The notes under the pieces: model-generated
What the model was told of the DNA's origin: nothing
Databases searched by the model: none
What the model saw: only the letters and a program-made list of their open reading frames with translations
Source of the DNA: Clostridia bacterium
Lineage (GTDB): Bacteria > Bacillota > Clostridia > Oscillospirales > CAG-272
Assembly (NCBI GenBank): GCA_017428635.1
Contig: JAFRQK010000046.1
Span: forward strand, 4,874-68,873
DNA: 64,000 bases
Reading direction: 5' to 3'
Program-made: the position numbers and the translations under genes
Shown here: piece by piece, positions 45,350-59,253 of the stretch
Layout: every line of letters starts with the position of its first letter
Position numbering within the stretch: the stretch's first letter is position 1

Positions 45350-45436
45350 GCGGATATGGCGGAATTGGCAGACGCGCTAGATTCAGGTTCTAGTCGGGGC
45401 AACTCGGTGAAGGTTCAAGTCCTTTTATCCGCACCA
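45350..45436 (+). tRNA. tRNA-Leu (anticodon CAG), CCA encoded
   Basis: Manual cloverleaf: acceptor GCGGATA/TATCCGC, anticodon arm CTAGA-TTCAGGT-TCTAG, long variable arm, T-loop GGTTCAAGTCC. Confidence 0.9.
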
Positions 45437-45557
45437 AACAGTACAAATCCGAACCCTAAGCCGGTTGGCGAAGGGTTCGGATTTGTTGTTTATTTCGACT
45501 ATCCGAATTTCAACTCCAAGCAAGACAAACAGAAAATGAAAAACGGAGGTCAAGAAA

Positions 45558-45854
45558 ATGAATCTGAACATTGGTAACATTGGAGTCTGGGGATTCCGGC
45601 ACTATGATTATCTCAAGCAAAACCGCCCGTCAACCGTCGGTGTGATGCGCATGAACGGAACGCTTGAAGGGTATCTCAAAGAGGTCAATCAAGAAGCAAC
45701 GGAAATGCTTGAAACGCTTATCCGGCAATATGCAAAGGCGGAAGGCGTCACGGAGGCACTTAAACGCACAGATCAACTCGGCTGGGTGCTAAAAATGAAC
45801 TCCATCCGCAACCGCGCCGAAGAGGTTATACTAAACGAAATCATATACCGGTAA
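45558..45854 (+). CDS. TnpV-like transposon protein (N-terminally short)
   Basis: 98 aa. ...YLKQNRP...GTLEGYLKEVNQEATEMLETLIRQYAKAEGVTEALKRTDQLGWVLKMNSIRNRAEEVILNEIIY matches, from memory, the C-terminal roughly 90 aa pattern of TnpV of Tn4451-type elements. Confidence 0.55.
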   Translation: MNLNIGNIGVWGFRHYDYLKQNRPSTVGVMRMNGTLEGYLKEVNQEATEMLETLIRQYAKAEGVTEALKRTDQLGWVLKMNSIRNRAEEVILNEIIYR

Positions 45855-45861
45855 AACGCAT

Positions 45862-45895
45862 GAGGCGGGGAGATCAACTCCCCGCCTCGTTTTTG
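45862..45895. terminator. Bidirectional intrinsic terminator
   Basis: GAGGCGGGGA-GATCAAC-TCCCCGCCTCGTTTTT. Confidence 0.6.
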
Positions 45896-46180
45896 CTATT
45901 CCTTAGTATCCTCTTTCTTTAATATAATATAACTGCAACTTTTTCCGTTTGCCATTCTTATTACCCGCGCTGTTGATATTTTCCTTCCATGCGCTGCATT
46001 CATTTGACGTTTCGCTACTCCGCTTCTGTAATGACTTTTTAATCTTGGGGTTGCATGTGCGGATCCCTTCGAATATTTTAGTCCTATAGAGTCCAAATAC
46101 CTAAATATTTCTTCTTTAGTCATTTTTGAAAACATTTCATCAATTGATGAAGATACATTCAACTTACTCATTAACATCAC
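45896..46180 (-). CDS. Hypothetical small basic protein, overlaps the 3' end of the upstream gene
   Basis: About 91-94 aa and AT-rich. Candidate starts are at 46177 and 46171, overlapping the stop of ORF 46164..46685. No recognisable motif. Confidence 0.5.
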   Translation of the reverse strand: MMLMSKLNVSSSIDEMFSKMTKEEIFRYLDSIGLKYSKGSAHATPRLKSHYRSGVAKRQMNAAHGRKISTARVIRMANGKSCSYIILKKEDTKE

Positions 46181-46685
46181 CTTTCTTTATCATATGTAAA
46201 TATTTTATTGGGGTGTTATTTCTTATGCAAAACTCTTTTCTTCGTTTCCGAGTATCTATAAGCGTTTTATGAGCACGCTTTGTTACTGCAAAACTTGCGG
46301 TCATCAATTCTAATTGAGGTTTTGAATCCCAAATAACCTTAGCGATAGAACACTGGTTTTGCTCAGCATCCTTATCAAGTGTTATATTTAGTTTTTTACA
46401 CAAATGGTTTTCAGCTTCACTAAGAGCTTCTTTCCCTTCATCCGTGTCAAGATCAAGAATACTCTTTTCATCAACACGTAGTATAGCCAATACTACTGCA
46501 TCTGAATCTCTCCAATTCCAAGCGTCATTAAAATTGTAATAAAAATATATACCGGGTCCAAGCCAATCGTTTTTAGAGTTTGAAAGAATAAATTTACGGC
46601 TAGACATAATTTCACTAGCAGAAGATATATTTGTTCCATGAAATCCTGAAAATAATACTTTGCCCACTGTTTTTCTCCTTAACAT
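46164..46685 (-). CDS. Hypothetical protein with possible ADP-ribosyltransferase-like (H-Y-E order) motifs
   Basis: 173 aa containing GFHGT...WLGPGIYFY...RKEFCIRNNTPIKYLHMI, which by eye resembles the PARP-type H..Y..E arrangement and is also reminiscent of DUF3990. The CDS itself is well supported (ATG, AAAGGA SD). Confidence 0.45.
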   Translation of the reverse strand: MLRRKTVGKVLFSGFHGTNISSASEIMSSRKFILSNSKNDWLGPGIYFYYNFNDAWNWRDSDAVVLAILRVDEKSILDLDTDEGKEALSEAENHLCKKLNITLDKDAEQNQCSIAKVIWDSKPQLELMTASFAVTKRAHKTLIDTRKRRKEFCIRNNTPIKYLHMIKKGDVNE

Positions 46686-46835
46686 AATCCTTTATTTATC
46701 CTTTATTTCAAAAAAACAAATGCTTTGGCGTCCTTGTCTATTCCATCAATCAGTTTTGCAGAAGATATTCTCCTTACAAATTAGAGCAAAGCAGATAGTC
46801 CAACAGTTTGATCTTCATAGTGTGCTACTAATTGT

Positions 46836-47249
46836 TTATTTCACGGCACTTGTTTTATCAGATTGTTTATTACGACTGCTTTTCCACTCTTCAAATTCGC
46901 GTTTTCCTTCTTCTGATTCAAAAAACGCGCGGATATCGGGGAGCATATCGTCCACTATAGCTTGCAGGACGTATTTCGGCACATTGCATTCAGCGCGACG
47001 CTCGCGGAATGTATATTTGAATTGTACACGCAGCCGTGCCCAGAAACCGCCGTGTTCATACTCCTGAATGTCCTTCCAGTACGGCTCCAATCGTTCGGCA
47101 ACAGCTTTTTTGAACTCCCGGTCGATCTCCGCAGCCCGACCCTCGCCGAGCATTTCCGCAACCCGCTTCCTGCCGTACTGCTTCTCCATTTCAGCCAGTT
47201 GGCGCTTCACTTCAAATATCGTGTATTTCTGTAATATCTCTTTTCCCAT
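46836..47249 (-). CDS. Hypothetical protein (mobile-element backbone gene?)
   Basis: 137 aa with higher G+C than its neighbours. It lies directly downstream of structured-repeat copy L, mirroring how the recombinase sits downstream of copy R. Confidence 0.6.
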   Translation of the reverse strand: MGKEILQKYTIFEVKRQLAEMEKQYGRKRVAEMLGEGRAAEIDREFKKAVAERLEPYWKDIQEYEHGGFWARLRVQFKYTFRERRAECNVPKYVLQAIVDDMLPDIRAFFESEEGKREFEEWKSSRNKQSDKTSAVK

Positions 47250-47261
47250 AAATGTCTCCGT

Positions 47262-47498
47262 TCCTGCGGGGTATTAGGGGTGCGGGTGTCCGGTGGACAC
47301 CTCTGCCGGAGGCAGAAGCACCGACCGAGGCGGCAGCCGAGACCTCGCTAACAAGCAGCTGACGAGGCAGGCGTTGTGTTTGCGCAAGCAAACGCGATGC
47401 TTGCCGAAGTAATGCCGGGTATTTGGCTATCCAATTACGTTGCTTGTGAAGGTGTGCCGCCGGATTTGTACGTACAAATCCAGTGCTTGCTAAAACAA
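47262..47498 (-). ncRNA. Structured repeat, copy L (candidate leader/ncRNA)
   Basis: Its reverse complement aligns with 53242-53540. Conserved blocks are separated by hairpins whose differences are compensatory. Confidence 0.5.
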
Positions 47499-47511
47499 AC
47501 ATATTATATTG

Positions 47512-48444
47512 TTAATTGTTATTGTTTTTTATGTTGTGCTCTTCAATGTATTTCAAAAGTTTTGGTTCAGTCATTACTTCGTCATATTGAGACAAGTGCA
47601 TTTGCATACCTTTAATATCGGAAACTGCATCTTTTACAAAGGTCTCGAAGTCTGTATTTGTTTCTACTAATCTATCAACAGTATCCCAATCTATTTTCTC
47701 TCTTTCTCTAGCAGAAAACAATATCTCGCTCTGCTCAATATTTTCAGCATTCAACTTAATGAACCCAATGCCAAATGCATTATTTAATCTAAGCATTTCT
47801 TCGTATAGTTCAGTATCATCCTCATATGATAAAGCAACGAGGTATCCTTCATTTGCCCAGCTTGAATTAGATACAGCCTGAAAGAAATATTCACGTAGAT
47901 TTGAAAAGCAAATTGTTTTTTTTAATTCAAACGAAAACAATTTGAATTTGCTGTCATTTAACGCTTCCAGTAAATTCGTCGTCTGTTGCGAATAGTCATT
48001 GAATGGAAAGTAAACTCCAACCATATCTGGATGAAGCCACTCGTTCTCCCCGCGTTTCTTCTTCTTAGATTTTTCGTGGAAAATCGTTTTCGTTACACAG
48101 TTAAAATGACCATCTGCATAAACAAAACTCGCTAACAAAGGGTGAAGGTCTCTTTCCTTAAAACTTAATTCATCATTGGTTACTTCCGATGTCTTTTTAG
48201 GAACAATGCTTAGATCTTTAATGTAAAAAGTTGCAGGCCTTTTACTGTATTGATATAACCTTGATTGAGGATTATCTCGTATATCAAGATAAACTCTGGC
48301 CGCAATAGTTTTTACTGGAGTTTTTCCAATTGATGATAGTTTATCCCTAAACCCGTATTCTCCAGCTTTCTTCCATATTTCTTCAATGGAAAGCGGAGAT
48401 TGATGCTTTTCGAGTGTCAAATATACTAAATCAAGAAAAGTCAT
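47512..48444 (-). CDS. HARE-HTH domain protein with C-terminal PD-(D/E)xK-like nuclease domain
   Basis: The N-terminus LSIEEIWKKAGEYG...GKTPVKTIAARVYLDIRDNP...FYIK looks HARE-HTH-like. The C-terminus has ERDLHP...WLHPDMVGV...FSFELK...QAVSNSSWA (D...ExK...Q). I use the ATG at 48444; the track ORF starts at GTG 48450. Confidence 0.6.
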   Translation of the reverse strand: MTFLDLVYLTLEKHQSPLSIEEIWKKAGEYGFRDKLSSIGKTPVKTIAARVYLDIRDNPQSRLYQYSKRPATFYIKDLSIVPKKTSEVTNDELSFKERDLHPLLASFVYADGHFNCVTKTIFHEKSKKKKRGENEWLHPDMVGVYFPFNDYSQQTTNLLEALNDSKFKLFSFELKKTICFSNLREYFFQAVSNSSWANEGYLVALSYEDDTELYEEMLRLNNAFGIGFIKLNAENIEQSEILFSAREREKIDWDTVDRLVETNTDFETFVKDAVSDIKGMQMHLSQYDEVMTEPKLLKYIEEHNIKNNNN

Positions 48445-48454
48445 TTCCACACCC

Positions 48455-48931
48455 CTAAATCTTAGGTATCATTGTCGATGCTTCGGGAGCATTTTTAGTG
48501 ATGCTCCAAACAGCAACCTTCATCTTTTTGATACGCTTTCCGTCGCCGAAATCAAGCAAGTCTTCTCTTTTATAAACATTGAGTATTTTGTTCAAGGTTC
48601 CAAGATCCGCTGAGGTCATTAAAAAAGCTTCTTCCGGATCTATCAATTTGCAATACGCCCATAACTGACCCAGATCTCTAAGCGTTAAACTTGTAATTTT
48701 AGCCTCGATGAAAAAGAGCTTAAATCCTTTAGCATTCCTGACAATACCAAGCACATCTATTTGGATATCAATTCCAGTAGCAACGTCGTGGACAATACCA
48801 TATCTGCGTAAGACTCTGTCGAGCCTTTCGCTATGCGCATCCACAACAATCACTTCGTCATTTTTATATTTGTCTTTTAAGTACGTTTCCAACCATTGAC
48901 ACATAGGTGGATATAAGTCAAATTCTTTCAT
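48455..48931 (-). CDS. Small PD-(D/E)xK-type nuclease-fold protein
   Basis: 158 aa containing GIDIQIDVLGIV...KLFFIEAKI (D-x-n-E-x-K), the restriction-endonuclease-like core pattern. Confidence 0.5.
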   Translation of the reverse strand: MKEFDLYPPMCQWLETYLKDKYKNDEVIVVDAHSERLDRVLRRYGIVHDVATGIDIQIDVLGIVRNAKGFKLFFIEAKITSLTLRDLGQLWAYCKLIDPEEAFLMTSADLGTLNKILNVYKREDLLDFGDGKRIKKMKVAVWSITKNAPEASTMIPKI

Positions 48932-48936
48932 TTAAT

Positions 48937-49824
48937 TTACTCTCCATACCCAAGCGCTGCCGCAATATCTTTCCAGGAATTATAGTGGTTTCCCTTGATT
49001 TCAACAGGCAGAAAATCGTCATTTTCTCCAGGATGTATCGGTTTAACTTTTGTTTTTCCCGCACCTTCCCAATAATACTTATGTGTTACATCCTCGACTC
49101 TTTTTCCTTCATCGGCAAGGCCGTTTTTCAATTCATTAGAAAACTGATCTAATGCTTCTCGTTTATGGATTACACCAAACCCGACCGGAACAAATTCATT
49201 AGCCCATATTTTGATCTGGTGCTCTTTTTTCCAAAAATCCGGCTTTCCTTCATTGTACTTTGATAAATTTCCATCGCGCATATTAGGATGTGCCCAATCT
49301 ATTGCTTGAACCGGAATGTCCACATCTTTCAGCAATTTGCAAACATCTACTACCAAATACCAATTATGCGGCACTTCAATGTACACTCTATGCATATATG
49401 GCTTAAAGAAATAGTTGCTTCTTCTAATGTAACCTGTAACATCAGCAAAACCTTGAAGGAAAGAAATCTTTTGATCTCTTGAGAATCGAAACACCTCGTT
49501 ATCAATCCTTATGTTTTCATGAGAAGCAGCATTTCCAACAAATCTAATTATTTCTCGCATTAAATAGTCATCATTTGGCTTAACAAACGAAATAATCGAA
49601 TAGTTATCCTGTTGCGTGAACGATAATCCCGTTCCAACAAGTGGCTCGATGATTGAACGTATATCAGTTATACTGGCTCGAACATAAATTCTGACATCGT
49701 TATTGTTTTCTGTAGCAAGTTTTTTGTGTGGAATTTCAATGGAAATTGTCGTCTCAAATTGTCCCCTTTTTATTTCGCCGTTTCCGCATATCATTCCAAG
49801 CAAATATGACATTTCTCTATTCAT
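48937..49824 (-). CDS. Hypothetical protein with two degenerate LAGLIDADG-like motifs
   Basis: 295 aa. SYLLGMICGNGEI (aa 6-18) and ISFLQGFADVTGYI (aa about 119-132) are spaced like a two-domain LAGLIDADG enzyme. The canonical acidic residues are replaced (N and T). Confidence 0.4.
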   Translation of the reverse strand: MNREMSYLLGMICGNGEIKRGQFETTISIEIPHKKLATENNNDVRIYVRASITDIRSIIEPLVGTGLSFTQQDNYSIISFVKPNDDYLMREIIRFVGNAASHENIRIDNEVFRFSRDQKISFLQGFADVTGYIRRSNYFFKPYMHRVYIEVPHNWYLVVDVCKLLKDVDIPVQAIDWAHPNMRDGNLSKYNEGKPDFWKKEHQIKIWANEFVPVGFGVIHKREALDQFSNELKNGLADEGKRVEDVTHKYYWEGAGKTKVKPIHPGENDDFLPVEIKGNHYNSWKDIAAALGYGE

Positions 49825-49841
49825 TAGCTATCTCCACTCTC

Positions 49842-50189
49842 TCAATTCAAACCGATTTTGTAACCAATTTTGAGTAATTCTGAAATCACCCCATTATCAT
49901 TTAAGCGATATTTATACTCGCTTCGATACACAGTATTGCGAGTAAACATCTTTAATAATGCAGTTGGTGGCGTTTCGGGAACATAAAGGCGTAATTCAAG
50001 TCCCCATTTATTAGCGTTGTTTTCAAGAAGTATGATTCCTTCACTTTGATCATCAATTCTTCCCCTATGAGTAGCGTTGTAATTAATAATAAAGTTGTTA
50101 ATTGCTCCCGGCTTTCCTTCGGCTTCAATAAAGAATGAATTACCTTTTGAAGAAATATCACGCAAAAAATCGATCAGTTTGTCTATCAT
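49842..50189 (-). CDS. Hypothetical protein (about 115 aa), weak paralogue of neighbouring ORFs
   Basis: I place the start at ATG 50189 behind AAAGGAG (MIDKLIDFLRDISSKGNSFFIE...). The LRLYV...RLNDNGVISELLKIGYKIG pattern resembles ORF 50203..50658. Confidence 0.55.
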   Translation of the reverse strand: MIDKLIDFLRDISSKGNSFFIEAEGKPGAINNFIINYNATHRGRIDDQSEGIILLENNANKWGLELRLYVPETPPTALLKMFTRNTVYRSEYKYRLNDNGVISELLKIGYKIGLN

Positions 50190-50202
50190 AAATAAAACTC
50201 CT

Positions 50203-50658
50203 TTACAAATTATAGCCTTTTTCAAATTCATCCATTAGATGTGGATGGTGTTTTCTTACTGCATCACGAATAGCAACAACATCCTGGTATTCTCCAAATG
50301 AAAAACCATAGTCACGAACCACTTTTTCAACAAATTTACCCTTATTTATGCGTTTAACATATGATCCTGTGCCCACTCCAAGAAAAGGAATAAGCACTTG
50401 TGGACAGTTTCGGATGTTATGGAAATATATACGCAATTGGCATCCTTGTTTCATAACATTCCCACCGGTTGTCTCGCCCTGTGTTATCGGGAAATATGGC
50501 GCATTGGGGAACTCTCTTTCAAAAATGAACCCCTTCTCTTCAGGGATTTGAGCTTCGATCAATCCTATACGACCCGGTGCCGCAAGGTATCCCAAGATTA
50601 AACATAGGTCTTTTTCAGGTACTGAAATATCTAAAGCACGATTGCTCAATAGTGACAT
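50203..50658 (-). CDS. Hypothetical protein (151 aa), weak paralogue of neighbouring ORFs
   Basis: LILGYLAAPGRIGLIE (LAGLIDADG-like helix). LRIYFHNIRNCPQVLIPFLGVGTGSY resembles VRIYVRASITDIRSIIEPLVGTGLSF of ORF 48937..49824. Confidence 0.55.
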   Translation of the reverse strand: MSLLSNRALDISVPEKDLCLILGYLAAPGRIGLIEAQIPEEKGFIFEREFPNAPYFPITQGETTGGNVMKQGCQLRIYFHNIRNCPQVLIPFLGVGTGSYVKRINKGKFVEKVVRDYGFSFGEYQDVVAIRDAVRKHHPHLMDEFEKGYNL

Positions 50659-50662
50659 GGAC

Positions 50663-51436
50663 TTACTCCTTTATGAATATCAAGAGATATTCGTGTATTT
50701 TATTGATTCTAAATTTATATGGATATCCTAACGGACGCATATTGTTATAATCTTGTTGTCTGTCCCAAATGATTAGGTCGTCATAGACAAAGCCTATGCT
50801 TTTAAGAGCAGACGCCAAATCACTATGCAATGGATAAAAAGAGCTCTTTTTTCTTATATCCATCACATTTACAATGCAGTAAGATCCTTTTTTCAGCACT
50901 CTATGAACAGATGAAAAAAGCGTCGTAAGCGATTGGATAAACTCATCGTAGTTTGGAATATTGCCAATATCGGTTTTTTTATCAGAATAATTTACAGAGT
51001 CTTTTTGATCGGCACTTCTTTTCATATTTAGAATATCCCAATACGGTGGCGAAGTGACGCAAATGTCAAAATAATCATTTGGAAGCGTTTTGAGAACAGA
51101 AAAACTGTCTCCGTTTATAATGCGAATTCCGTTAGTGTTGCCAATGCGATCCATGGCTACCTTACAAAAATCTTCTGATAAATCTATTCCAACCGCTTCA
51201 CGATTCTGCAATTTAGCAGCAACTGTCGTTGAACCAATACCATTGAATGGATCAAGCACCCGTCCGTCCGGTTTAGAAAAAGTACGAATGATCTTTTCAC
51301 ATAATTCTACAGGGTAAGAAGCCGGATGCTTCAATGCCTTTTCTTCTCTTGTTTTTGATATATCTCTCCAAATGCTAAATGAATTCTGGAGCCATTCTTT
51401 TCCAGAAAGGTCGTTACATTTTTTAGAGTTGTCCAT
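50663..51436 (-). CDS. DNA methyltransferase, N4-cytosine/N6-adenine type (PF01555-like)
   Basis: HPASYPVEL...VLDPFNGIGSTTVAA (AdoMet motif I) precedes TSPPYWD (catalytic motif IV). I use the ATG at 51436 behind AAGGTGG; the track ORF starts at TTG 51442. Confidence 0.85.
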   Translation of the reverse strand: MDNSKKCNDLSGKEWLQNSFSIWRDISKTREEKALKHPASYPVELCEKIIRTFSKPDGRVLDPFNGIGSTTVAAKLQNREAVGIDLSEDFCKVAMDRIGNTNGIRIINGDSFSVLKTLPNDYFDICVTSPPYWDILNMKRSADQKDSVNYSDKKTDIGNIPNYDEFIQSLTTLFSSVHRVLKKGSYCIVNVMDIRKKSSFYPLHSDLASALKSIGFVYDDLIIWDRQQDYNNMRPLGYPYKFRINKIHEYLLIFIKE

Positions 51437-52835
51437 CTGCAATCCACCTTTTTGATTGAATCCTTTTCATTTCAGAATCAATGAAATCCGATTCTTTTTT
51501 TGTAATATTATAAGCCGCATATACAATTTGATTTAATTGCTCTAAACTGTTAAACCAATCTTGGTTCATATAGTCATCAGATTCCAAACTGCCAACTAAC
51601 TTCAAGATTTGTTCAAAATACTGATCCTGAAGTTTTCTGCAGGGTAGAGGTATTTTCTTGAGGTATTTCGCATCGGTATGCATAGTCAACTTTGAGTAAT
51701 TGTAACAATACTTGTATAAGAACAAATTGCAAAGTCTGGAGTGTAGTATTCCGAGAATATAGTGACACATTTTCGGATCACCGTCAGTAAAAACCGTAAC
51801 GGTTTGTGAAGCTTCTAAATTCCCGCCGAACGCTGCTATTACACCAGCCTCAGCGCTATATATATTCTGTATAAATAACGTGTTTCCCTCTGTTGGCAAA
51901 TCGTGGTCTTTGTACCCGAATTTCCGAATGTCTTTGCCGGTAATTGCTTCTTTCGATGTTGACCTTCCGCGTCCAACGTATCCATTGCAAACATCATTCA
52001 ATGTTTTATATGAAGTTGATAACTTTTTGTAAATTGAAAAATCTTCAGAACAGTTAAAAATCAAAATTGTGTCATTATAAAAACTTTGTGGAATAGATGT
52101 CATCGTAACAAATCTATTACTTGAGTATTTTTTTATTTTGATTTTATGATTTTTATCAGCTTTAGCATTTTTAATGGTTAAAACAATCTGCTCACCGCGA
52201 ACATGCTTAAAATATGCTCCAAGATCAACAATTGAAACAATAGATTTTTCCTCAAGTAATTCACGCCTAAACAAACTATAAGAATGAACATGAAGAAAAT
52301 TCTTTGGGATAATATATGAAACCAATCCATTGGGCTTAACGAGGTCCAGCGCACGCATGAGAGCCGCAACAAAAAGATTGTTTCCGGAATCCGACACTCT
52401 ACGTCTAAACAAATAATCGGATTGTAATACGACTTCCGAAGTCAACGGGACATATGGCGGGTTTCCTATAATAATATCAGGATGAACGTCTAAACAAAGA
52501 TGCGAAAGAGTGACGGTTGCATCATTGCCAATTGAATCATCGGCCACAAAGAAAGCTCCGTGTATATTGTTGCGGCAAAAATCAATGGCGTTGTTGTCTT
52601 GATCAATTCCATAAACGTTTTCACACCCATGTTTAATTGCAGCATAAACAAATACGCCAGCGCCACAACATGGATCCAAGATCACAGATGATTTATCCGG
52701 ATTAAGTTCAAAAAGCATTTTTTCGGCAAGAGATAAGTCAGTATAATAAATGCCATTGTCCTTTTTAAAATCTGAATCAAGAGAGCTTTCATAAACATTC
52801 GAAGCATCAATATATGCATTCTGAGCAAGTGACAT
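51423..52835 (-). CDS. N6-adenine DNA methyltransferase, gamma class (Eco57I/TaqI-like) with C-terminal target-recognition domain
   Basis: GIYYTDLSLAEKM, ILDPCCGAGVFV (motif I) and IIGNPPYV (motif IV); 470 aa; AAGGAGGG SD. Confidence 0.9.
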   Translation of the reverse strand: MSLAQNAYIDASNVYESSLDSDFKKDNGIYYTDLSLAEKMLFELNPDKSSVILDPCCGAGVFVYAAIKHGCENVYGIDQDNNAIDFCRNNIHGAFFVADDSIGNDATVTLSHLCLDVHPDIIIGNPPYVPLTSEVVLQSDYLFRRRVSDSGNNLFVAALMRALDLVKPNGLVSYIIPKNFLHVHSYSLFRRELLEEKSIVSIVDLGAYFKHVRGEQIVLTIKNAKADKNHKIKIKKYSSNRFVTMTSIPQSFYNDTILIFNCSEDFSIYKKLSTSYKTLNDVCNGYVGRGRSTSKEAITGKDIRKFGYKDHDLPTEGNTLFIQNIYSAEAGVIAAFGGNLEASQTVTVFTDGDPKMCHYILGILHSRLCNLFLYKYCYNYSKLTMHTDAKYLKKIPLPCRKLQDQYFEQILKLVGSLESDDYMNQDWFNSLEQLNQIVYAAYNITKKESDFIDSEMKRIQSKRWIADGQL

Positions 52836-52852
52836 TGTAAGCCCTCCTTCAA

Positions 52853-53074
52853 TTAATTCTGGCTTTTTTCTGTAATGTCCATAATATCGCCGATATTACA
52901 TTCCAAAACACCACAAATCTTCATCATGACTTCCATAGATACCGGTTGATTTTTACTGAGTTTAGACAATGTAGTTGAACCAATTCCTGTAGCTTCTTTT
53001 AATTGCATTTTCTTCATGTTTTTGTCTATAAGCAATTTCCAAAGTTTGTTGTACGTAACAGCCAACAGTATCAC
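52853..53074 (-). CDS. XRE-family HTH protein (controller/C-protein-like)
   Basis: VTYNKLWKLLIDKNMKKMQLKEATGIGSTTLSKLSKNQPVSMEVMMKICGVLECNIGDIMD. It is the first gene of the operon. The true start may be the TTG at 53065, downstream of GAGGTG. Confidence 0.8.
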   Translation of the reverse strand: MILLAVTYNKLWKLLIDKNMKKMQLKEATGIGSTTLSKLSKNQPVSMEVMMKICGVLECNIGDIMDITEKSQN

Positions 53075-53094
53075 CTCATTTCAAATCTAATAGT

Positions 53095-53162
53095 ATTATA
53101 TCATATCTTCCGATAGAATGCAATATAAAATCGATAATAGAAAAGAAAATTTTCTATTATCG
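53095..53162 (-). promoter_or_regulatory. Operon promoter plus upstream 13-bp-arm palindrome (C-box-like operator)
   Basis: Minus strand reads TTGCAT-17 nt-TATAAT (53123..53095). CGATAATAGAAAA-5 nt-TTTTCTATTATCG (53132-53162) lies just upstream of the -35. Confidence 0.5.
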
Positions 53163-53241
53163 GCAATTATTTTTTCTTTACCTATGGGCAAATCGGCTGA
53201 AATATGATATACTTTTCTTCGCAGAAACAAAGACGCGGCGC

Positions 53242-53540
53242 TGTTTCAGCAAGCACTGGAAAATGTGTACATTTTCCGGCGGTGCTGTTTCGGCAAGCAT
53301 CGTGCTTTGACTCCACCGGAGCAAAACACCACGGCATTGCCTTCACAAGCAACGACTTTGGACTCCCACGTCCAAAGTCAGACTTGCTCGCAGCTCTGCA
53401 AGCATCGCGGAATGATATCATTCCGCACCCGCTTGCTTCGCCCGCCGCTTGTTAGGGAGGTCTCGGCTGCCGGCTCGGTCAGTGCTTCTGCCTACGGCAG
53501 AGGTCTCCACCGGAGACCCGCACCCCTAAAACCCCTGCGA
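53242..53540 (+). ncRNA. Structured repeat, copy R (candidate leader/ncRNA upstream of the recombinase)
   Basis: Homologous to the reverse complement of 47262-47498. A long-range helix pairs AAGCACTG (53251-58) with CAGTGCTT (53480-87), and several internal hairpins show covariation. Confidence 0.5.
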
Positions 53541-53575
53541 AACAATCTTGAGCAGAAGGAGGTGAGAAGAAGAAA

Positions 53576-55045
53576 ATGAAAGGCGTGATCTACGCAAGGT
53601 ATTCCAGCGACAATCAGCGTGAAGAGTCTATCGAAGGTCAGATCCGTGAATGTAAGGCTTTTGCCTACAAAAACGGAATCGACATTATTGAGATCTACAT
53701 CGACCGTGCGTTGTCAGCAAAAACGGATAACCGACCCGATTTTCAGCGGCTGATCAAGGAAAGCGGAAGCAAGAAGTTTGAAGTCTTGCTCGTATGGAAA
53801 CTCGACCGTTTCGCACTGAACAAGTTCGACTCGGCGCACTACAAACGGATCCTGAAAAACAACGGTGTTCGTGTTGTATCGGCAACCGAAGTGATATCGA
53901 CCGGTCCCGAAGGGATCTTGCTTGAATCAATGCTCGAGGGAATGGCGGAATACTATTCAGCCGATCTTTCGGAAAAGGTCATGCGCGGACAGACCGAAAA
54001 CGCACTGAAATGTATGTATAACGGCGGTACGCTCCCAATAGGGTACGTCATCGACAAGGAACAGCACTTTCAGATCGATCCGGTCGCGGCACCGCTGGTA
54101 TTGCAGGCGTTTACCGATTACTCAAACGGCAAGTCGATGCGTGAAGTAACGGACATGCTGAATCTTGCAGGAATCCGCACCAAGCGCGGCGGAAAGGTCA
54201 GCATCAACAGCGTGACGAGAATGCTGCATAACCGCAAGTACATTGGTGAGTATCAATACCGCGACATCGTTCATCCGCACGGAATCCCGGCGATCGTCCC
54301 GGAAGAACTGTTTGAACGCGTACAGGAACGATTGGCTAAAACAAAGAAAGCCCCTGCCAAGTTCAAGGCAGAAGACGAGTATCTGTTAACGACCAAACTG
54401 TTCTGCGGCAAATGCAACTGTTATATGGCGGGAGAATCCGGCACGAGCCACACGGGCATCGTTCATCGGTATTACAAATGCGTGAGCGTGAAGAACCATA
54501 AGGGCTGCGACAAAAAGTCTGTACAAAAAGAGTGGATCGAAAATCTCGTCATCGACCAGATCAAAAAGATCCTGTTCGACGATGAAATGATCGAAAAACT
54601 CGCGGATATGGGCATGGAACGTCAGCGCAAAGAAAACACGGTGCTTCCCATGCTGAAACGCCAGCTTGCCGAAACGGAAAAAGGCATCCGCAACTTCGTT
54701 GACGCGATCCAGCAAGGGATCATCACGGAATCGACGAAGGAGCGGCTTGAAGGGTTGGAAAGAACAAAGAAAGAGCTTTCTGCTCAAATCGCACGGGAAG
54801 AATTACTCCAACCGCCGGAATTCACACGGGATCAGTTCCTGTTCTGGTTCGAGCGGATGCGCAAGTACGACACCACGAAACTCGTTCACCGTCGCCGTCT
54901 GATCGACAGCTTTGTCAACGCGATATACCTTTACGACGACAGGATCACCCTCGTCTTCAATTTCAAAGACGGCACAAAAACGATAACTTTCGCCGAGCTT
55001 GAGGAATCAGGCTTGGGTTCGGATATAAATGCACTCGCTGCATAA
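53576..55045 (+). CDS. Large serine recombinase
   Basis: MKGVIYARYSSDNQ (catalytic Ser), resolvase domain, recombinase domain, zinc ribbon CGKCNCYM...YYKCVSVKNHKGC, and a coiled-coil C-terminus; 489 aa; AAGGAGGTG SD. Confidence 0.95.
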   Translation: MKGVIYARYSSDNQREESIEGQIRECKAFAYKNGIDIIEIYIDRALSAKTDNRPDFQRLIKESGSKKFEVLLVWKLDRFALNKFDSAHYKRILKNNGVRVVSATEVISTGPEGILLESMLEGMAEYYSADLSEKVMRGQTENALKCMYNGGTLPIGYVIDKEQHFQIDPVAAPLVLQAFTDYSNGKSMREVTDMLNLAGIRTKRGGKVSINSVTRMLHNRKYIGEYQYRDIVHPHGIPAIVPEELFERVQERLAKTKKAPAKFKAEDEYLLTTKLFCGKCNCYMAGESGTSHTGIVHRYYKCVSVKNHKGCDKKSVQKEWIENLVIDQIKKILFDDEMIEKLADMGMERQRKENTVLPMLKRQLAETEKGIRNFVDAIQQGIITESTKERLEGLERTKKELSAQIAREELLQPPEFTRDQFLFWFERMRKYDTTKLVHRRRLIDSFVNAIYLYDDRITLVFNFKDGTKTITFAELEESGLGSDINALAA

Positions 55046-55075
55046 AAACAGGGCTGTTTTACAGCCCTGTTTTTA
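55046..55075 (+). terminator. Intrinsic terminator after the recombinase
   Basis: ACAGGGCTGT-TTT-ACAGCCCTGT followed by TTTT. Confidence 0.7.
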
Positions 55076-55091
55076 TGCGGATCTTTAAGGA

Positions 55092-55215
55092 AGGACTTGA
55101 AGGGCGCGCGTGTCAGAAAACAGTCCGGGGGACTGTTTTCCCGCGCGCTGACCGAGGGAGCGTCATTTTTCGTATTTTGCGAAAAATGACTTCGCGCGAC
55201 CGAGAATCAAGTCCT
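55092..55215 (+). repeat. 124-bp three-helix repeat, copy A
   Basis: Termini AGGACTTGA...TCAAGTCCT are inverted, and there are two long internal hairpins. Homologous to 59093-59215. Confidence 0.7.
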
Positions 55216-55441
55216 CTGCCCGCTCCGCGGGCAGCCCTGCTCAACTTGCACTAACCTTCATTTTGACCATTAGAAACGCTCTCCGTTTCTCAACGTTTGA
55301 GTTCCGCTTTTGTTCCACGGTTGAATTTTCAACCCGCATTAGAATTCATCTCAAAAGCAAAGTTATTGCAATACAAAAACAAATCGGTATAATTGAATCA
55401 GGATCAGGCGCCGATCCAATAATAACTGAGAGGTAAAACAA

Positions 55442-56242
55442 ATGAATTTGGGTGAAAAGATCAAATCTCTGCGTAAAAAGCGCGGAGTGTCGCAGGAGTA
55501 TCTCGCCGAAAGGCTCGGGATCTCTTTTCAGGCGGTGAGCAAATGGGAGACAGGAACTACCCTTCCCGACGTCGCCCTGATTCCGGCTATCGCCTCCTTC
55601 TTCGGCGTCAGTACGGACGAGCTTTTCGATTTCGACGTTTACGGGATAGGCAAGAAAGTCGAGGCAGTCGTTGACGAATGGAAGAGATATCTCGATTCGG
55701 ACCCGGATAAAGCCGAAGAAATAATCAGGGATGCACTGAAAACGTATCCCGGGAACGAGGTGCTTCTCAACTGCCTTCTCTCTTCCCTGCCGCTCCCTGA
55801 AAGAGCCGAGGATGCGATCGAGATAGGTCGTCAACTCGCAGCGAATGCGGAAGACGACGCCGTGAGGATCGACGCGTACTGTTTAACAGCGGAAGCGTAT
55901 AGAGCGATCGGAGAAAAAACAATGTGCAGAGAGTACGTTGACAAGATACCTGAAACGTATAATTCATGTCTCTACGTAAAGGCGCTTCTGCTCGACGGCG
56001 AAGACAGTTTTGAGGCGGCGGTTAAGGAAAAATGTCTGTGCTACGAACATTTGGTGCGGATGCTCACTATCCTTGCGGATCGGTACGTCGAAAAAGGCGA
56101 AAAAGATAACGCGATCAAGTCGCTTGAAACGATCAAAAAACTCGCGGAGGCGTTCCGCGACGACCCCGCGACCGACTACACGACTTCGTGTTACGATCCC
56201 GAACTATCCGAGGCCGCTGAGCAAAAACTAAGAAGTCTTTGA
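55442..56242 (+). CDS. XRE-family HTH regulator with TPR-like C-terminal domain
   Basis: MNLGEKIKSLRKKRGVSQEYLAERLGISFQAVSKWETG, followed by a helical repeat region; 266 aa. Confidence 0.8.
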   Translation: MNLGEKIKSLRKKRGVSQEYLAERLGISFQAVSKWETGTTLPDVALIPAIASFFGVSTDELFDFDVYGIGKKVEAVVDEWKRYLDSDPDKAEEIIRDALKTYPGNEVLLNCLLSSLPLPERAEDAIEIGRQLAANAEDDAVRIDAYCLTAEAYRAIGEKTMCREYVDKIPETYNSCLYVKALLLDGEDSFEAAVKEKCLCYEHLVRMLTILADRYVEKGEKDNAIKSLETIKKLAEAFRDDPATDYTTSCYDPELSEAAEQKLRSL

Positions 56243-56407
56243 ACATAATACGCCGCCGGGTCATCCGACGGCGTATTTTTGTTTTCTCTTCACGCCACGC
56301 GTACAGACATTCTCGACATACTCCCCCCATCTTGACTTTTCAAGAAACGTATGTTATATTCAAAGTAAAGTATTCCCTATTTTTTTATCAAAGAAAGGTA
56401 CTCCGCC

Positions 56408-58973: not shown

Positions 58974-59053
58974 GCGCCCGTGGCGGAACTGGCAGACGCG
59001 CCGGATTTAGGATCCGGTCCGAAAGGGTGCAGGTTCAAGTCCTGTCGGGCGCA
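58974..59053 (+). tRNA. tRNA-Leu (anticodon TAG), no encoded CCA
   Basis: Acceptor GCGCCCG/CGGGCGC, anticodon arm CCGGA-TTTAGGA-TCCGG, long variable arm, T-arm CAGGTTCAAGTCCTG. Confidence 0.85.
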
Positions 59054-59253
59054 AAAAAGGGGCTTCGGTCCCTTTTTTCGTCCATTGAAAACAGGACTTG
59101 AAGGCCACGCGTGTAAGAAAACAATCCGGGGGATTGTTTTCCCGCGGGGTGACCGAATGAGCGTCAATTTTCGTATTATGCGAAAATTGACCCGCGCGAA
59201 TGAGAATCAAGTCCTGTCGGGCGCAAAAAAGGGGCTTCGGTCCCTTTTTTCGT
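59035..59253 (+). repeat. 47-bp perfect direct repeat (59035-59081 and 59207-59253) bracketing a 125-bp insert
   Basis: Both copies read TCAAGTCCTGTCGGGCGCAAAAAAGGGGCTTCGGTCCCTTTTTTCGT, which is the tRNA-Leu 3' end plus its UUCG-loop terminator. Confidence 0.85.
59093..59215 (+). repeat. 124-bp three-helix repeat, copy B
   Basis: Aligns with 55092-55215. Differences inside both hairpins are compensatory. Confidence 0.7.

Follow-up and report, generated by a model that had tools for sequence, protein, structure and literature searches.

Folded repeats matched to their tRNA and tmRNA neighbours in gut and rumen Clostridia: a case for gene-less insertion cassettes

A 64,000-nucleotide stretch of a Clostridia bacterium genome (GenBank assembly GCA_017428635.1, contig JAFRQK010000046.1, positions 4,874 to 68,873; hereafter the window) carries a folded repeat, copy A (55092-55215), close behind a large serine recombinase gene, and a second copy, B (59093-59215), behind a tRNA-Leu gene. 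The locus raises the question of what kind of element this repeat is. We give a probability of about 0.5 to the reading that A and B are gene-less, strongly folded insertion cassettes that dock behind tRNA and transfer-messenger RNA (tmRNA) genes in gut and rumen Clostridia. The analysis yields an element with a proven fold and a proven insertion polymorphism, whose mechanism we infer.

The two copies are direct repeats 4,001 bp apart, 88% identical in their first 99 nt and 91% in their last 23 nt. Both open with AGGACTTGA and close with TCAAGTCCT, a 9-mer that equals the T-loop/T-stem sequence of both tRNA-Leu genes listed below. An initial annotation of the window had described two homologous copies in the same orientation, bounded by a 9-bp terminal inverted repeat. 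The pair of copies and the identity of the 9-mer with the Leu T-arm were confirmed, but the matching 5' arm is 11-12 nt long and the ends of the element vary with the neighbouring tRNA. Each fold consists of the closing helix P1 and two hairpins, the long and interrupted P2/P3 and P4; P2 is an additional helix underneath hairpin 1. A full unit consists, in order, of a terminator hairpin, an optional anti-acceptor with a spacer of ~7 nt, an inverse T-arm, the core (P2/P3, CTGACCGAG, P4) and a direct tRNA copy. The inverse arm pairs with the direct copy and closes the fold, which accounts for the "terminal inverted repeat". The parts of copy A are as follows.

45350-45436, + strand: tRNA-Leu(CAG), the cognate of cassette A, now split off by the recombinase island (ARAGORN, Rfam)
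55040-55078, + strand: perfect 18-bp terminator hairpin (inverted repeat), T1 of cassette A, whose left arm overlaps the recombinase stop codon
55076-55082, + strand: anti-acceptor TGCGGAT, complement of the acceptor 3' strand ATCCGCA of tRNA-Leu(CAG)
55091-55101, + strand: anti-T arm AAGGACTTGAA, reverse complement of T54-T64 of tRNA-Leu(CAG) (T-arm TTCAAGTCCTT) and 5' strand of P1
55102-55206, + strand: core with P2, P3 (GAAAACAGTCC/GGACTGTTTTC), junction CTGACCGAG and P4 (GTCATTTTTCG/CGAAAAATGAC), ending ...CGAGAA (alignment, RNAalifold)
55207-55215, + strand: T copy TCAAGTCCT, equal to T55-T63 of the tRNA, 3' strand of P1
55216-55265, + strand: accessory GC hairpin CTGCCCGC-TCC-GCGGGCAG, then ...GCTCAACTTGCACTAACCTTCATTTTGA

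Those of copy B are the following.

58974-59053, + strand: tRNA-Leu(TAG), carrier of cassette B (ARAGORN, Rfam)
59035-59081, + strand: left 47-bp direct repeat, from T55 of the T-loop to the terminator end, 100% identical to the right copy
59082-59206, + strand: 125 bp missing in the sister species (comparison with its genome, G119, contig C5), made up of spacer CCATTGAAA, anti-T arm ACAGGACTTGAA (59091-59102) and core ending GAGAA
59207-59253, + strand: right 47-bp direct repeat, whose first 9 nt are the 3' strand of copy B P1

The core of copy A scores 142 bits with R1, a covariance model built on eight copies from the window's own genome, and its fold has a z of -6.6. The tRNA identity of its T copy ends after 9 nt. 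The right flanks of copies D, E, H, I and J, like flanks in G119, resemble the accessory module that follows, with weak BLAST similarity. More generally, a covarying GC hairpin (e.g. CTGCCCGC/GCGGGCAG or CCGCGCC/GGCGCGG) followed by ...GCTCAAAATGCAGTAACC... recurs directly 3' of the T copy in copy A and in these others, where it stands in place of the remaining tRNA 3' copy.

By nhmmer and BLAST, about 11 significant copies were found in the window's own 2.27-Mb assembly. With the exception of copy A and one contig-end fragment, they follow a tRNA gene at a distance of 40-60 nt and share its orientation; the fragment would, judged by the sister genome, belong behind tRNA-Arg(ACG). The tRNAs concerned are Leu(TAG), Leu(GAG), Gly(CCC), Glu(CTC), Ser(GGA), Ser(TGA) (two tandem units), Val(CAC) and Met, and a scan for inverse T-arms showed that Gln(CTG) and Ser(CGA) bear cassettes as well. 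Of the 40 tRNA genes of this genome, 9 have an inverse T-arm (9 nt or more) within 150 nt downstream, and none of the 40 has one upstream. The T-loop and 3' T-stem of the local tRNA recur in every copy as their reverse complement, the 5' arm, which changes with the tRNA:

Leu: AGGACTTGAA
Gly and Glu: GGGAATCGAA
Ser: GGGATTCGAA
Val: GGGGCTCGAA

In the 3' arm the same tRNA is copied directly, from T55 or C56 towards its 3' end. Among 31 aligned copies linked to tRNA or tmRNA genes in many genomes, complementarity of the arm extends over T54-T63 or beyond (to as much as 21 nt) in all 31, and the T copy begins at T55/C56 in 29. Where direct copies have diverged, the arm agrees with the tRNA at 11 positions and with the copy at 5. 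The identity run between direct copy and tRNA is mostly 20-27 nt and reaches the tRNA 3' end; runs of 8-14 nt, 31-66 nt and, in tandem arrays, ~100 nt also occur, with up to three tandem units at tmRNA loci. An anti-acceptor segment of at least 6 nt precedes the arm in 13 of 38 tRNA-linked copies, at a modal spacer length of 7 nt (ATTGAAA or TAAGGAA). Close cores are found at tRNAs with an equal T-arm, namely Leu-CAG/Leu-TAG and Gly-CCC/Glu-CTC. Because the arms vary to fit each tRNA or tmRNA, TCAAGTCCT is not a terminus of the element. A reading of the arm as a direct copy of the 5' T-stem and T-loop was discarded, since the non-palindromic Leu loop gives ACTTGAA and the copy is therefore inverse. 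One module of the own genome (contig C50, 48985-49083) lies within a duplicated 3' part of tRNA-Met, between ...ACCCGGAGGT and CGGGTGGTTCAAATCCCACTCCCGCAA; it is placed at the boundary of variable loop and T-stem and not behind the tRNA.

Cassettes are widespread among relatives. Of 151 genomes in the same taxonomic family, 49 have R1 matches, in 37 of 97 genera, with up to 21 copies per genome. A strict pattern for the commoner core subfamily was matched in at least 120 contigs among species-representative genomes, and among the matches listed nearly all were metagenome-assembled genomes of gut or rumen Clostridia (Oscillospiraceae, Acutalibacteraceae, "Eubacteriales"). Seven viral contigs also carry the core pattern, and the one examined (L233) has no integrase nearby. 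The linked genes comprise at least 15 tRNA species and tmRNA. The initial annotation was right to tie the repeat to tRNA genes, as the 9 downstream and 0 upstream matches among 40 tRNAs and the tracking of the tRNA by the arms show, but it had assigned the repeat to a tRNA-Leu family, and the same core stands behind all these other genes with its arms changed accordingly.

The fold itself is strongly supported. The free energies of A and B lie 5.7-7.1 standard deviations under those of dinucleotide shuffles (z = -6.6 and -5.7), and none of 200 shuffles was as stable. Two differences between the copies preserve pairing, ACAGTCC/GGACTGT against ACAATCC/GGATTGT and GTCATTTTTCG/CGAAAAATGAC against GTCAATTTTCG/CGAAAATTGAC. 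Both had been quoted in the initial annotation as a sign of selection on structure; they are genuine, and the wider alignments bear out the selection. Compensatory changes are found in 21 of 42 predicted pairs in a MAFFT alignment of the eight own-genome copies, and 36 of the 42 pairs are changed on both sides among 62 copies from many genomes; the latter alignment was fitted to the covariance model and favours the structure, whereas the eight-copy alignment is independent of it. Across the 62 copies, 89% of the cells are paired, compared with 68% after column shuffles and 31-42% with slid partners, and 0 of 500 shuffles attain any of the observed pairing measures. The closing helix P1 is 96.7% paired and covaries with the tRNA. 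On the tRNA-sense strand G:T wobbles number 56 and A:C mismatches 19, which indicates that the fold forms on this strand, either in RNA or in single-stranded DNA. From this strong covariation, a single-stranded fold is under selection. About 35 unpaired nucleotides are conserved in the eight-copy alignment, and the commoner subfamily has an internal loop with tandem G.A/A.A pairs (31-80, 32-77). In Rfam 15, the window and seven related loci matched tRNA alone, with nothing on the cassettes at E <= 1 or at E <= 0.1 beyond noise. A hammerhead-like ribozyme (CUGA..GA) was considered and dropped for lack of any Rfam ribozyme match, and a C/D-box or K-turn reading of the conserved loops failed because the K-turn-like loop is missing from the A-D subfamily.

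Copy B is inserted DNA. In the sister species, the orthologous tRNA-Leu(TAG) is accompanied by a single terminator and the same downstream gene, the counterpart of window positions 59082-59206 is absent, and there is one 47-bp repeat where the window has two (59035-59081 and 59207-59253). The insert amounts to 125 bp plus a perfect 47-bp duplication; the tRNA is kept intact and its T-loop-to-3' segment is duplicated. This empty site shows that the repeat behaves as an insertion. Both 47-bp copies in the window are identical and carry terminator bases unlike those of G119, and since these strain-specific bases are shared, the duplication was made or homogenised in the lineage of the window. The converse case is tRNA-Thr(GGT), where G119 has a full cassette and the window's genome has a perfect 28-bp palindrome with no core (contig C79, ~56215-56300), composed of the last 14 nt of the tRNA, the terminator and a 14-nt anti-acceptor/anti-T-stem. 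This palindrome may be either a decayed cassette or a precursor. A coreless palindrome without a direct copy was also seen at tRNA-Ser(GCT) of the own genome (contig C3). At tRNA-Val(CAC), Leu(GAG) and Glu(CTC), the two species differ in the terminators or in the core subfamily behind the same tRNA, which indicates cassette turnover.

Any mechanism has to produce the observed order X - terminator - antiX - core - X, where X is the copied tRNA segment. The attP(+) of CTXphi, used by XerCD (an integrative mobile element exploiting Xer, IMEX), and the attC of integrons are folded single-stranded attachment sites. By analogy with them, the folded single strand of the cassette may be the active form, with a closing helix that replicates the target duplex. 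The cassette would spread among tRNA genes that share 9-12 nt of the T-arm, with targeting by T-arm homology or complementarity, and the joining might be performed by an enzyme encoded elsewhere or by template switching during replication. In the first of these routes, (a), the antiX:X helix of the folded strand would copy the target and one strand would be exchanged in the T-loop, as for CTXphi at dif and integron cassettes at attI. In the second, (b), replication would leave the tRNA/terminator end for a donor cassette and return through the 9-12-nt T-arm microhomology, and no dedicated enzyme would be needed. Route (b) would fit copy B especially, because both of its duplicates are the recipient's own tRNA end and terminator. 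Once placed, the cassette would probably be transcribed by read-through from the tRNA, and its tRNA-like end would be the site of trimming, as with the RNAs of the E. coli repeats described below.

Several points weigh against insertion cassettes. A single clean filled/empty pair was analysed for the tRNA-linked type. Four metagenome DNA runs with this strain gave the filled site and no joints, that is, neither an excised form nor an empty-site contig, in contigs that drop rare variants. No catalyst has been identified. There is no recurrent neighbour gene around 137 pattern matches (127 loci), except SmpB by the tmRNA-linked copies. No tyrosine integrase (PF00589) was found within 3 kb of any cassette in 8 genomes (~85 cassettes; nearest 3.4 kb), and two cassette-rich genomes hold just two tyrosine recombinases each. 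The Y1 transposase associated with repetitive extragenic palindromes (REP), RAYT, is unlinked too: PF01797 is missing from the own genome (G000), from G119 and from 9 of the 11 cassette-bearing genomes tested. A strong terminator and no recognisable promoter lie ahead of the core; TTGAAA in the spacer is a possible -35 box, with no -10 box at a workable distance by eye. The good match of the acceptor complements is accounted for by neither route, and the cassette reading does not account for the matching of both the arm and the left tRNA end to a new tRNA.

The alternative that survives best is that the repeat is not mobile but a resident functional trailer RNA of the tRNA operon. The anti-X/X helix would then be a "top-half" tRNA mimic, in which anti-acceptor, spacer and anti-T-stem pair with the copied 3' strand and imitate the cognate acceptor/T-stem stack. 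RNase P with RNase Z or E could excise such an RNA, its core would carry the function (protein binding, sponging), and copies at other tRNAs would arise by rare duplication or recombination. Strong covariation with G:T favoured over A:C on the tRNA-sense strand is what an RNA would show, and the ~35 conserved unpaired nucleotides and the tandem G.A/A.A loop of the commoner subfamily suit it as well. So do the position between two terminators, as for E. coli RrA, RrB and RrF, and the order anti-acceptor, spacer, anti-T-stem, which is that of the tRNA 5' strand. However, a resident RNA would not be expected to differ in presence and core subfamily at the same tRNA between sister species, to form tandem arrays and decayed copies, or to share its core with tRNA-unlinked repeats that show no orientation bias. 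The acceptor part of the helix is, moreover, missing in two thirds of the copies, and the terminator stands upstream of the core with no promoter. We consider an exclusively resident RNA unlikely, if still a serious competitor, and a trailer-RNA function would be compatible with either route of insertion.

It is also conceivable, but improbable, that the cassettes are scars of islands inserted by tyrosine integrases, comparable to cis-mobilizable elements (CIMEs), with the core as a remnant of the attP flank of one island family that lost its cargo and integrase, and the duplicated block as the att identity block of T-loop-class integrases. The direct repeat from T-loop to tRNA 3' end that flanks the insert, mostly of 20-27 nt, has the form expected of such scars, and tandem accretion at tRNA and tmRNA genes agrees with the role of tRNA genes as island hotspots in these genomes. 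Nevertheless, none of the ~85 cassettes surveyed above is integrase-adjacent, covarying hairpins are not expected of attP arms, and an inverse T-arm has no role in a double-stranded attP. The core also has no site like the 5' T-stem before the T copy, and one core serves many tRNA specificities.

Less probable still is a generic repeat like REP or the bacterial interspersed mosaic element (BIME), with the tRNA association as a by-product of a preference for terminators. This view draws on a wider superfamily, since the P2/P3 hairpin and the GACCGAG junction also occur in many tRNA-unlinked repeats, with outer modules ...CCTTCCCCTTGAGGGTAGCGAAGCG(core)...GATGAGGTGA. Five such repeats are present in the window's genome. 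Repeats of this type lie between convergent or co-directional genes, have mosaic flanks and no recurrent neighbour gene, vary in presence between sister species and show no orientation bias relative to the flanking open reading frames (ORFs). One block of ~190 bp, made up of a tRNA-unlinked module and a CCCCTCAAGGGG...CCCCTTGAGGGG repeat, has opposite orientations in the two sister species within identical flanks, which either an inversion or independent insertions both ways would explain:

Own genome contig C44, 12410-12552, versus G119 contig C59 (locus L255, 712-855): ~190-bp block in opposite orientation

The initial annotation had named random variation in the stems, or copies scattered without a link to tRNA genes or recombinases, as the marks of a generic REP or MITE (a miniature transposable element with inverted repeats). 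The same core does occur in tRNA-unlinked repeats, but the stems covary and the arms of the tRNA-linked copies match the local T-arm base for base, always in tRNA orientation and at a fixed distance. RAYT is, as noted, missing from G000, G119 and most carriers. A MITE was rejected because the arms vary with the tRNA, the duplication ranges from 8 to >100 nt and no related transposase lies nearby.

The initial annotation had instead proposed a recombination site, accessory element or small RNA of the large serine recombinase family at tRNA-Leu, and the surroundings of copy A bear on this. The features concerned are these.

45437-55042, + strand: low-GC island at the tRNA-Leu(CAG) 3' end, with TnpV, a restriction-modification (RM) operon and the large serine recombinase gene (53576-55045) (Pfam, GC profile)
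47268-47373, + strand: first arm of the 106-nt inverted repeat, consisting of a mini-module akin to the core (GGTGTCCGGTGGACACC ... GCACCGACCGAG ...)
53430-53535, - strand: arm 2 of the 106-nt inverted repeat, just upstream of the recombinase gene

The ORF at 53576-55045 contains Resolvase, Recombinase and Zn_ribbon_recom domains (Pfam), and the island also encodes TnpV and DNA methylases. Besides the window's own, 4 of 32 recombinase homologues in related genomes have a cassette downstream, close to the number predicted from the share of tRNAs that bear cassettes. No cassette follows the four homologues that are closest (66-77% identity), and their similarity to the window stops at ...CACTCGCTGCA, just ahead of the TAA stop codon of the window. 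G119 contains 21 cassettes without any homologue of the recombinase, which is also lacking in the cassette-rich genomes G037, G047, G048 and G084. Although copy A lies 13 nt 3' of the recombinase terminator (and not 17 nt, as first annotated), four more homologues (38-54% identical) have a cassette 65-80 nt downstream and the attB half-site (GGTTC + 14 nt + GC) spans the stretch of tRNA duplicated in the cassette, the recombinase view is largely refuted and can be given next to no weight, since 28 of 32 homologues including the closest four lack a cassette, the linkage rate is near that predicted from tRNAs, cassette-rich genomes lack the recombinase, many non-Leu tRNAs are served, and the conserved end of the island lies at GCA, short of the cassette. 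The link between recombinase and cassette appears, on these sequences, to be incidental. The TGCGGAT of copy A fits tRNA-Leu(CAG) 9.6 kb upstream, which suggests that the island was inserted between the tRNA and a pre-existing cassette. The simplest reading would be that the island targets tRNA-Leu 3' ends and split tRNA-Leu(CAG) from the standing cassette A.

The ends of the island can be compared with the tRNA. The 3' end of the recombinase gene reads GGTTC + 19 nt + GC, that of tRNA-Leu(CAG) GGTTC + 14 nt + GC, and GAACC lies 17-18 nt from the junction at the left end of the island. Between the attP and attB half-sites of large serine recombinases, an offset of 5 bp is usual. At the island ends (45433-45460 and 55016-55045), the last 27 nt of the gene (GGTTCGGATATAAATGCACTCGCTGCA) resemble a tRNA 3' end, and homologues elsewhere also end acceptor-like, abutting CCA and a terminator. 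It looks as if, in this recombinase family, attP overlaps the gene's own stop codon and attB is the tRNA 3' end. On contig C5 of G119, orthologous to window positions 45350-56283, the same tRNA-Leu(CAG) carries a different 5.2-kb island; behind it are a displaced 12-nt tRNA end and then the left end of a window-type island, and the counterpart of 45686-55317, including the recombinase and cassette A, is missing. This arrangement points to islands stacked and eroded at tRNA-Leu(CAG). The 106-nt inverted repeat is 89% complementary and brackets the RM operon, with a hairpin GTGTCCGGTGGACAC followed by GCACCGACCGAG... in each mini-module. The same mini-module breaks a TnpV remnant in G119 with a net change of 61 nt and a shifted frame; an in-frame insert was discarded, as a net 61 nt is out of frame.

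For genome analysis, the cassettes are of practical concern: they break assemblies, mimic att sites and "TIRs" (terminal inverted repeats), and create tRNA 3' fragments, by all of which programs that search for islands and those who annotate gut Clostridia genomes can be misled. Their mobility and the selection of a new tRNA become directly testable.

Among known systems, Tn4451/TnpX resembles the neighbouring island alone, in its Resolvase-Recombinase-Zn-ribbon protein and TnpV and in an attP arm inside the gene 3' end; the cassette lies outside the island's conserved end, and most homologous islands have no cassette. With REP and BIME the cassettes share short GC-rich covarying hairpins, a mosaic makeup, an intergenic position mostly downstream of genes, tRNA-unlinked members and, in the common cassette subfamily, a conserved GTAG beside the hairpin. 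They differ in that RAYT/Y1_Tnp is missing in G000, G119 and most carriers, the cassettes are much larger and branched, and REP have no tRNA-matched arms.

Elements that integrate into tRNA genes have reportedly been sorted by Williams, in 2002, into sublocation classes. Like the integrative elements of the T-loop class and CIMEs, the cassettes keep the tRNA by means of a second T-loop-to-3' copy, have a direct repeat of ~20 nt, accrete in tandem and use tmRNA. Unlike them, they measure 125-170 bp, have no nearby integrase, contain an inverse copy of the target and a covarying core, and use one core for many tRNAs. Another parallel in form is given by CTXphi attP and integron attC, in which inverted segments ~100 nt apart likewise pair and rebuild the target duplex, structure is conserved more than sequence, one strand is active, spacers are bulged and the tip is variable or branched. 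In the cassettes, however, the T-arm takes the place of dif or attI as the target, conserved Xer or IntI boxes are lacking, and no recombinase is implicated.

A literature search returned no description for Clostridia, and its sole match was to the literature on the tRNA-linked repeats (TLRs) of E. coli. In E. coli, 22 TLRs of which the function is unknown lie at ten loci, with 1-5 per locus (PMC8144298). They follow tRNA or rRNA genes and end in 18-19 bp of the 3' end of the upstream gene; some lie between terminators T1 and T2, and some are transcribed by read-through and processed (PMC8144298). RrA, RrB and RrF, behind rrn operons, are read-through transcripts that are processed and bind Hfq and CsrA (PMC8144298). 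The 178-bp repeats of tyrT/tyrV contain the RttR/RtT RNA (Rfam RF00391; Egan & Landy 1978 and Rudd 1999, as cited in PMC8144298). At tyrT-tyrV of strain MG1655 (1286700-1287620), we found that each unit holds GGGGAAGGAT ~90 nt upstream of ATCCTTCCCC(CACCACCA), and that GGGGAAGGAT complements ATCCTTCCCC, the start of the unit's terminal copy of the tRNA-Tyr 3' end. An inverse arm thus faces a direct copy, which indicates that E. coli TLRs share this design. The best matches of R1 in tyrT-tyrV are exactly the four TLR units, although weak (7-9 bits) and restricted to the closing helix.

The Clostridial cassettes resemble TLRs in standing directly behind tRNA or tmRNA genes in the same orientation (40-60 nt 3'; copy A displaced by the later island), between two terminators, as tandem units per locus and with no protein gene. 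Their 3' end likewise copies the end of the upstream gene (modal 20-27 nt; 47 nt in copy B; 8-14 nt in copy A and others). On the other hand, there is no detectable homology of sequence or core structure, and RtT (RF00391) had no match in the window. The copied block starts at T55/C56 in Clostridia and at A58 in E. coli, the Clostridial arm covers the T-loop, and the Clostridial core is common to a larger tRNA-unlinked superfamily. Expression has been shown for the E. coli units, whereas the Clostridial cassettes are known here from sequence. By position and end identity, and not by sequence homology, the cassettes are a Clostridial variant of the tRNA-linked-repeat phenomenon.

A bolder view, which we regard as doubtful, is that cassettes and E. 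coli TLRs form one class of nucleic-acid-guided insertion elements without protein genes. The programmable guide would be the arm of 10-20 nt that complements the T-arm (and acceptor), set beside a conserved scaffold; as single-stranded DNA or RNA it would pick the matching tRNA T-loop, and a host enzyme or replication would complete insertion at T54-C56. This would explain the constant agreement of arm, target and duplicated end. Catalogues of E. coli TLRs go back to 1978, and neither function nor origin has been assigned to them. The Clostridial set is a second one, far larger, more diverse and from an unrelated phylum; it adds dozens of tRNA specificities on one core and an insertion polymorphism between sister species, and its variation is enough both to demonstrate the fold through covariation and to identify which strand folds.

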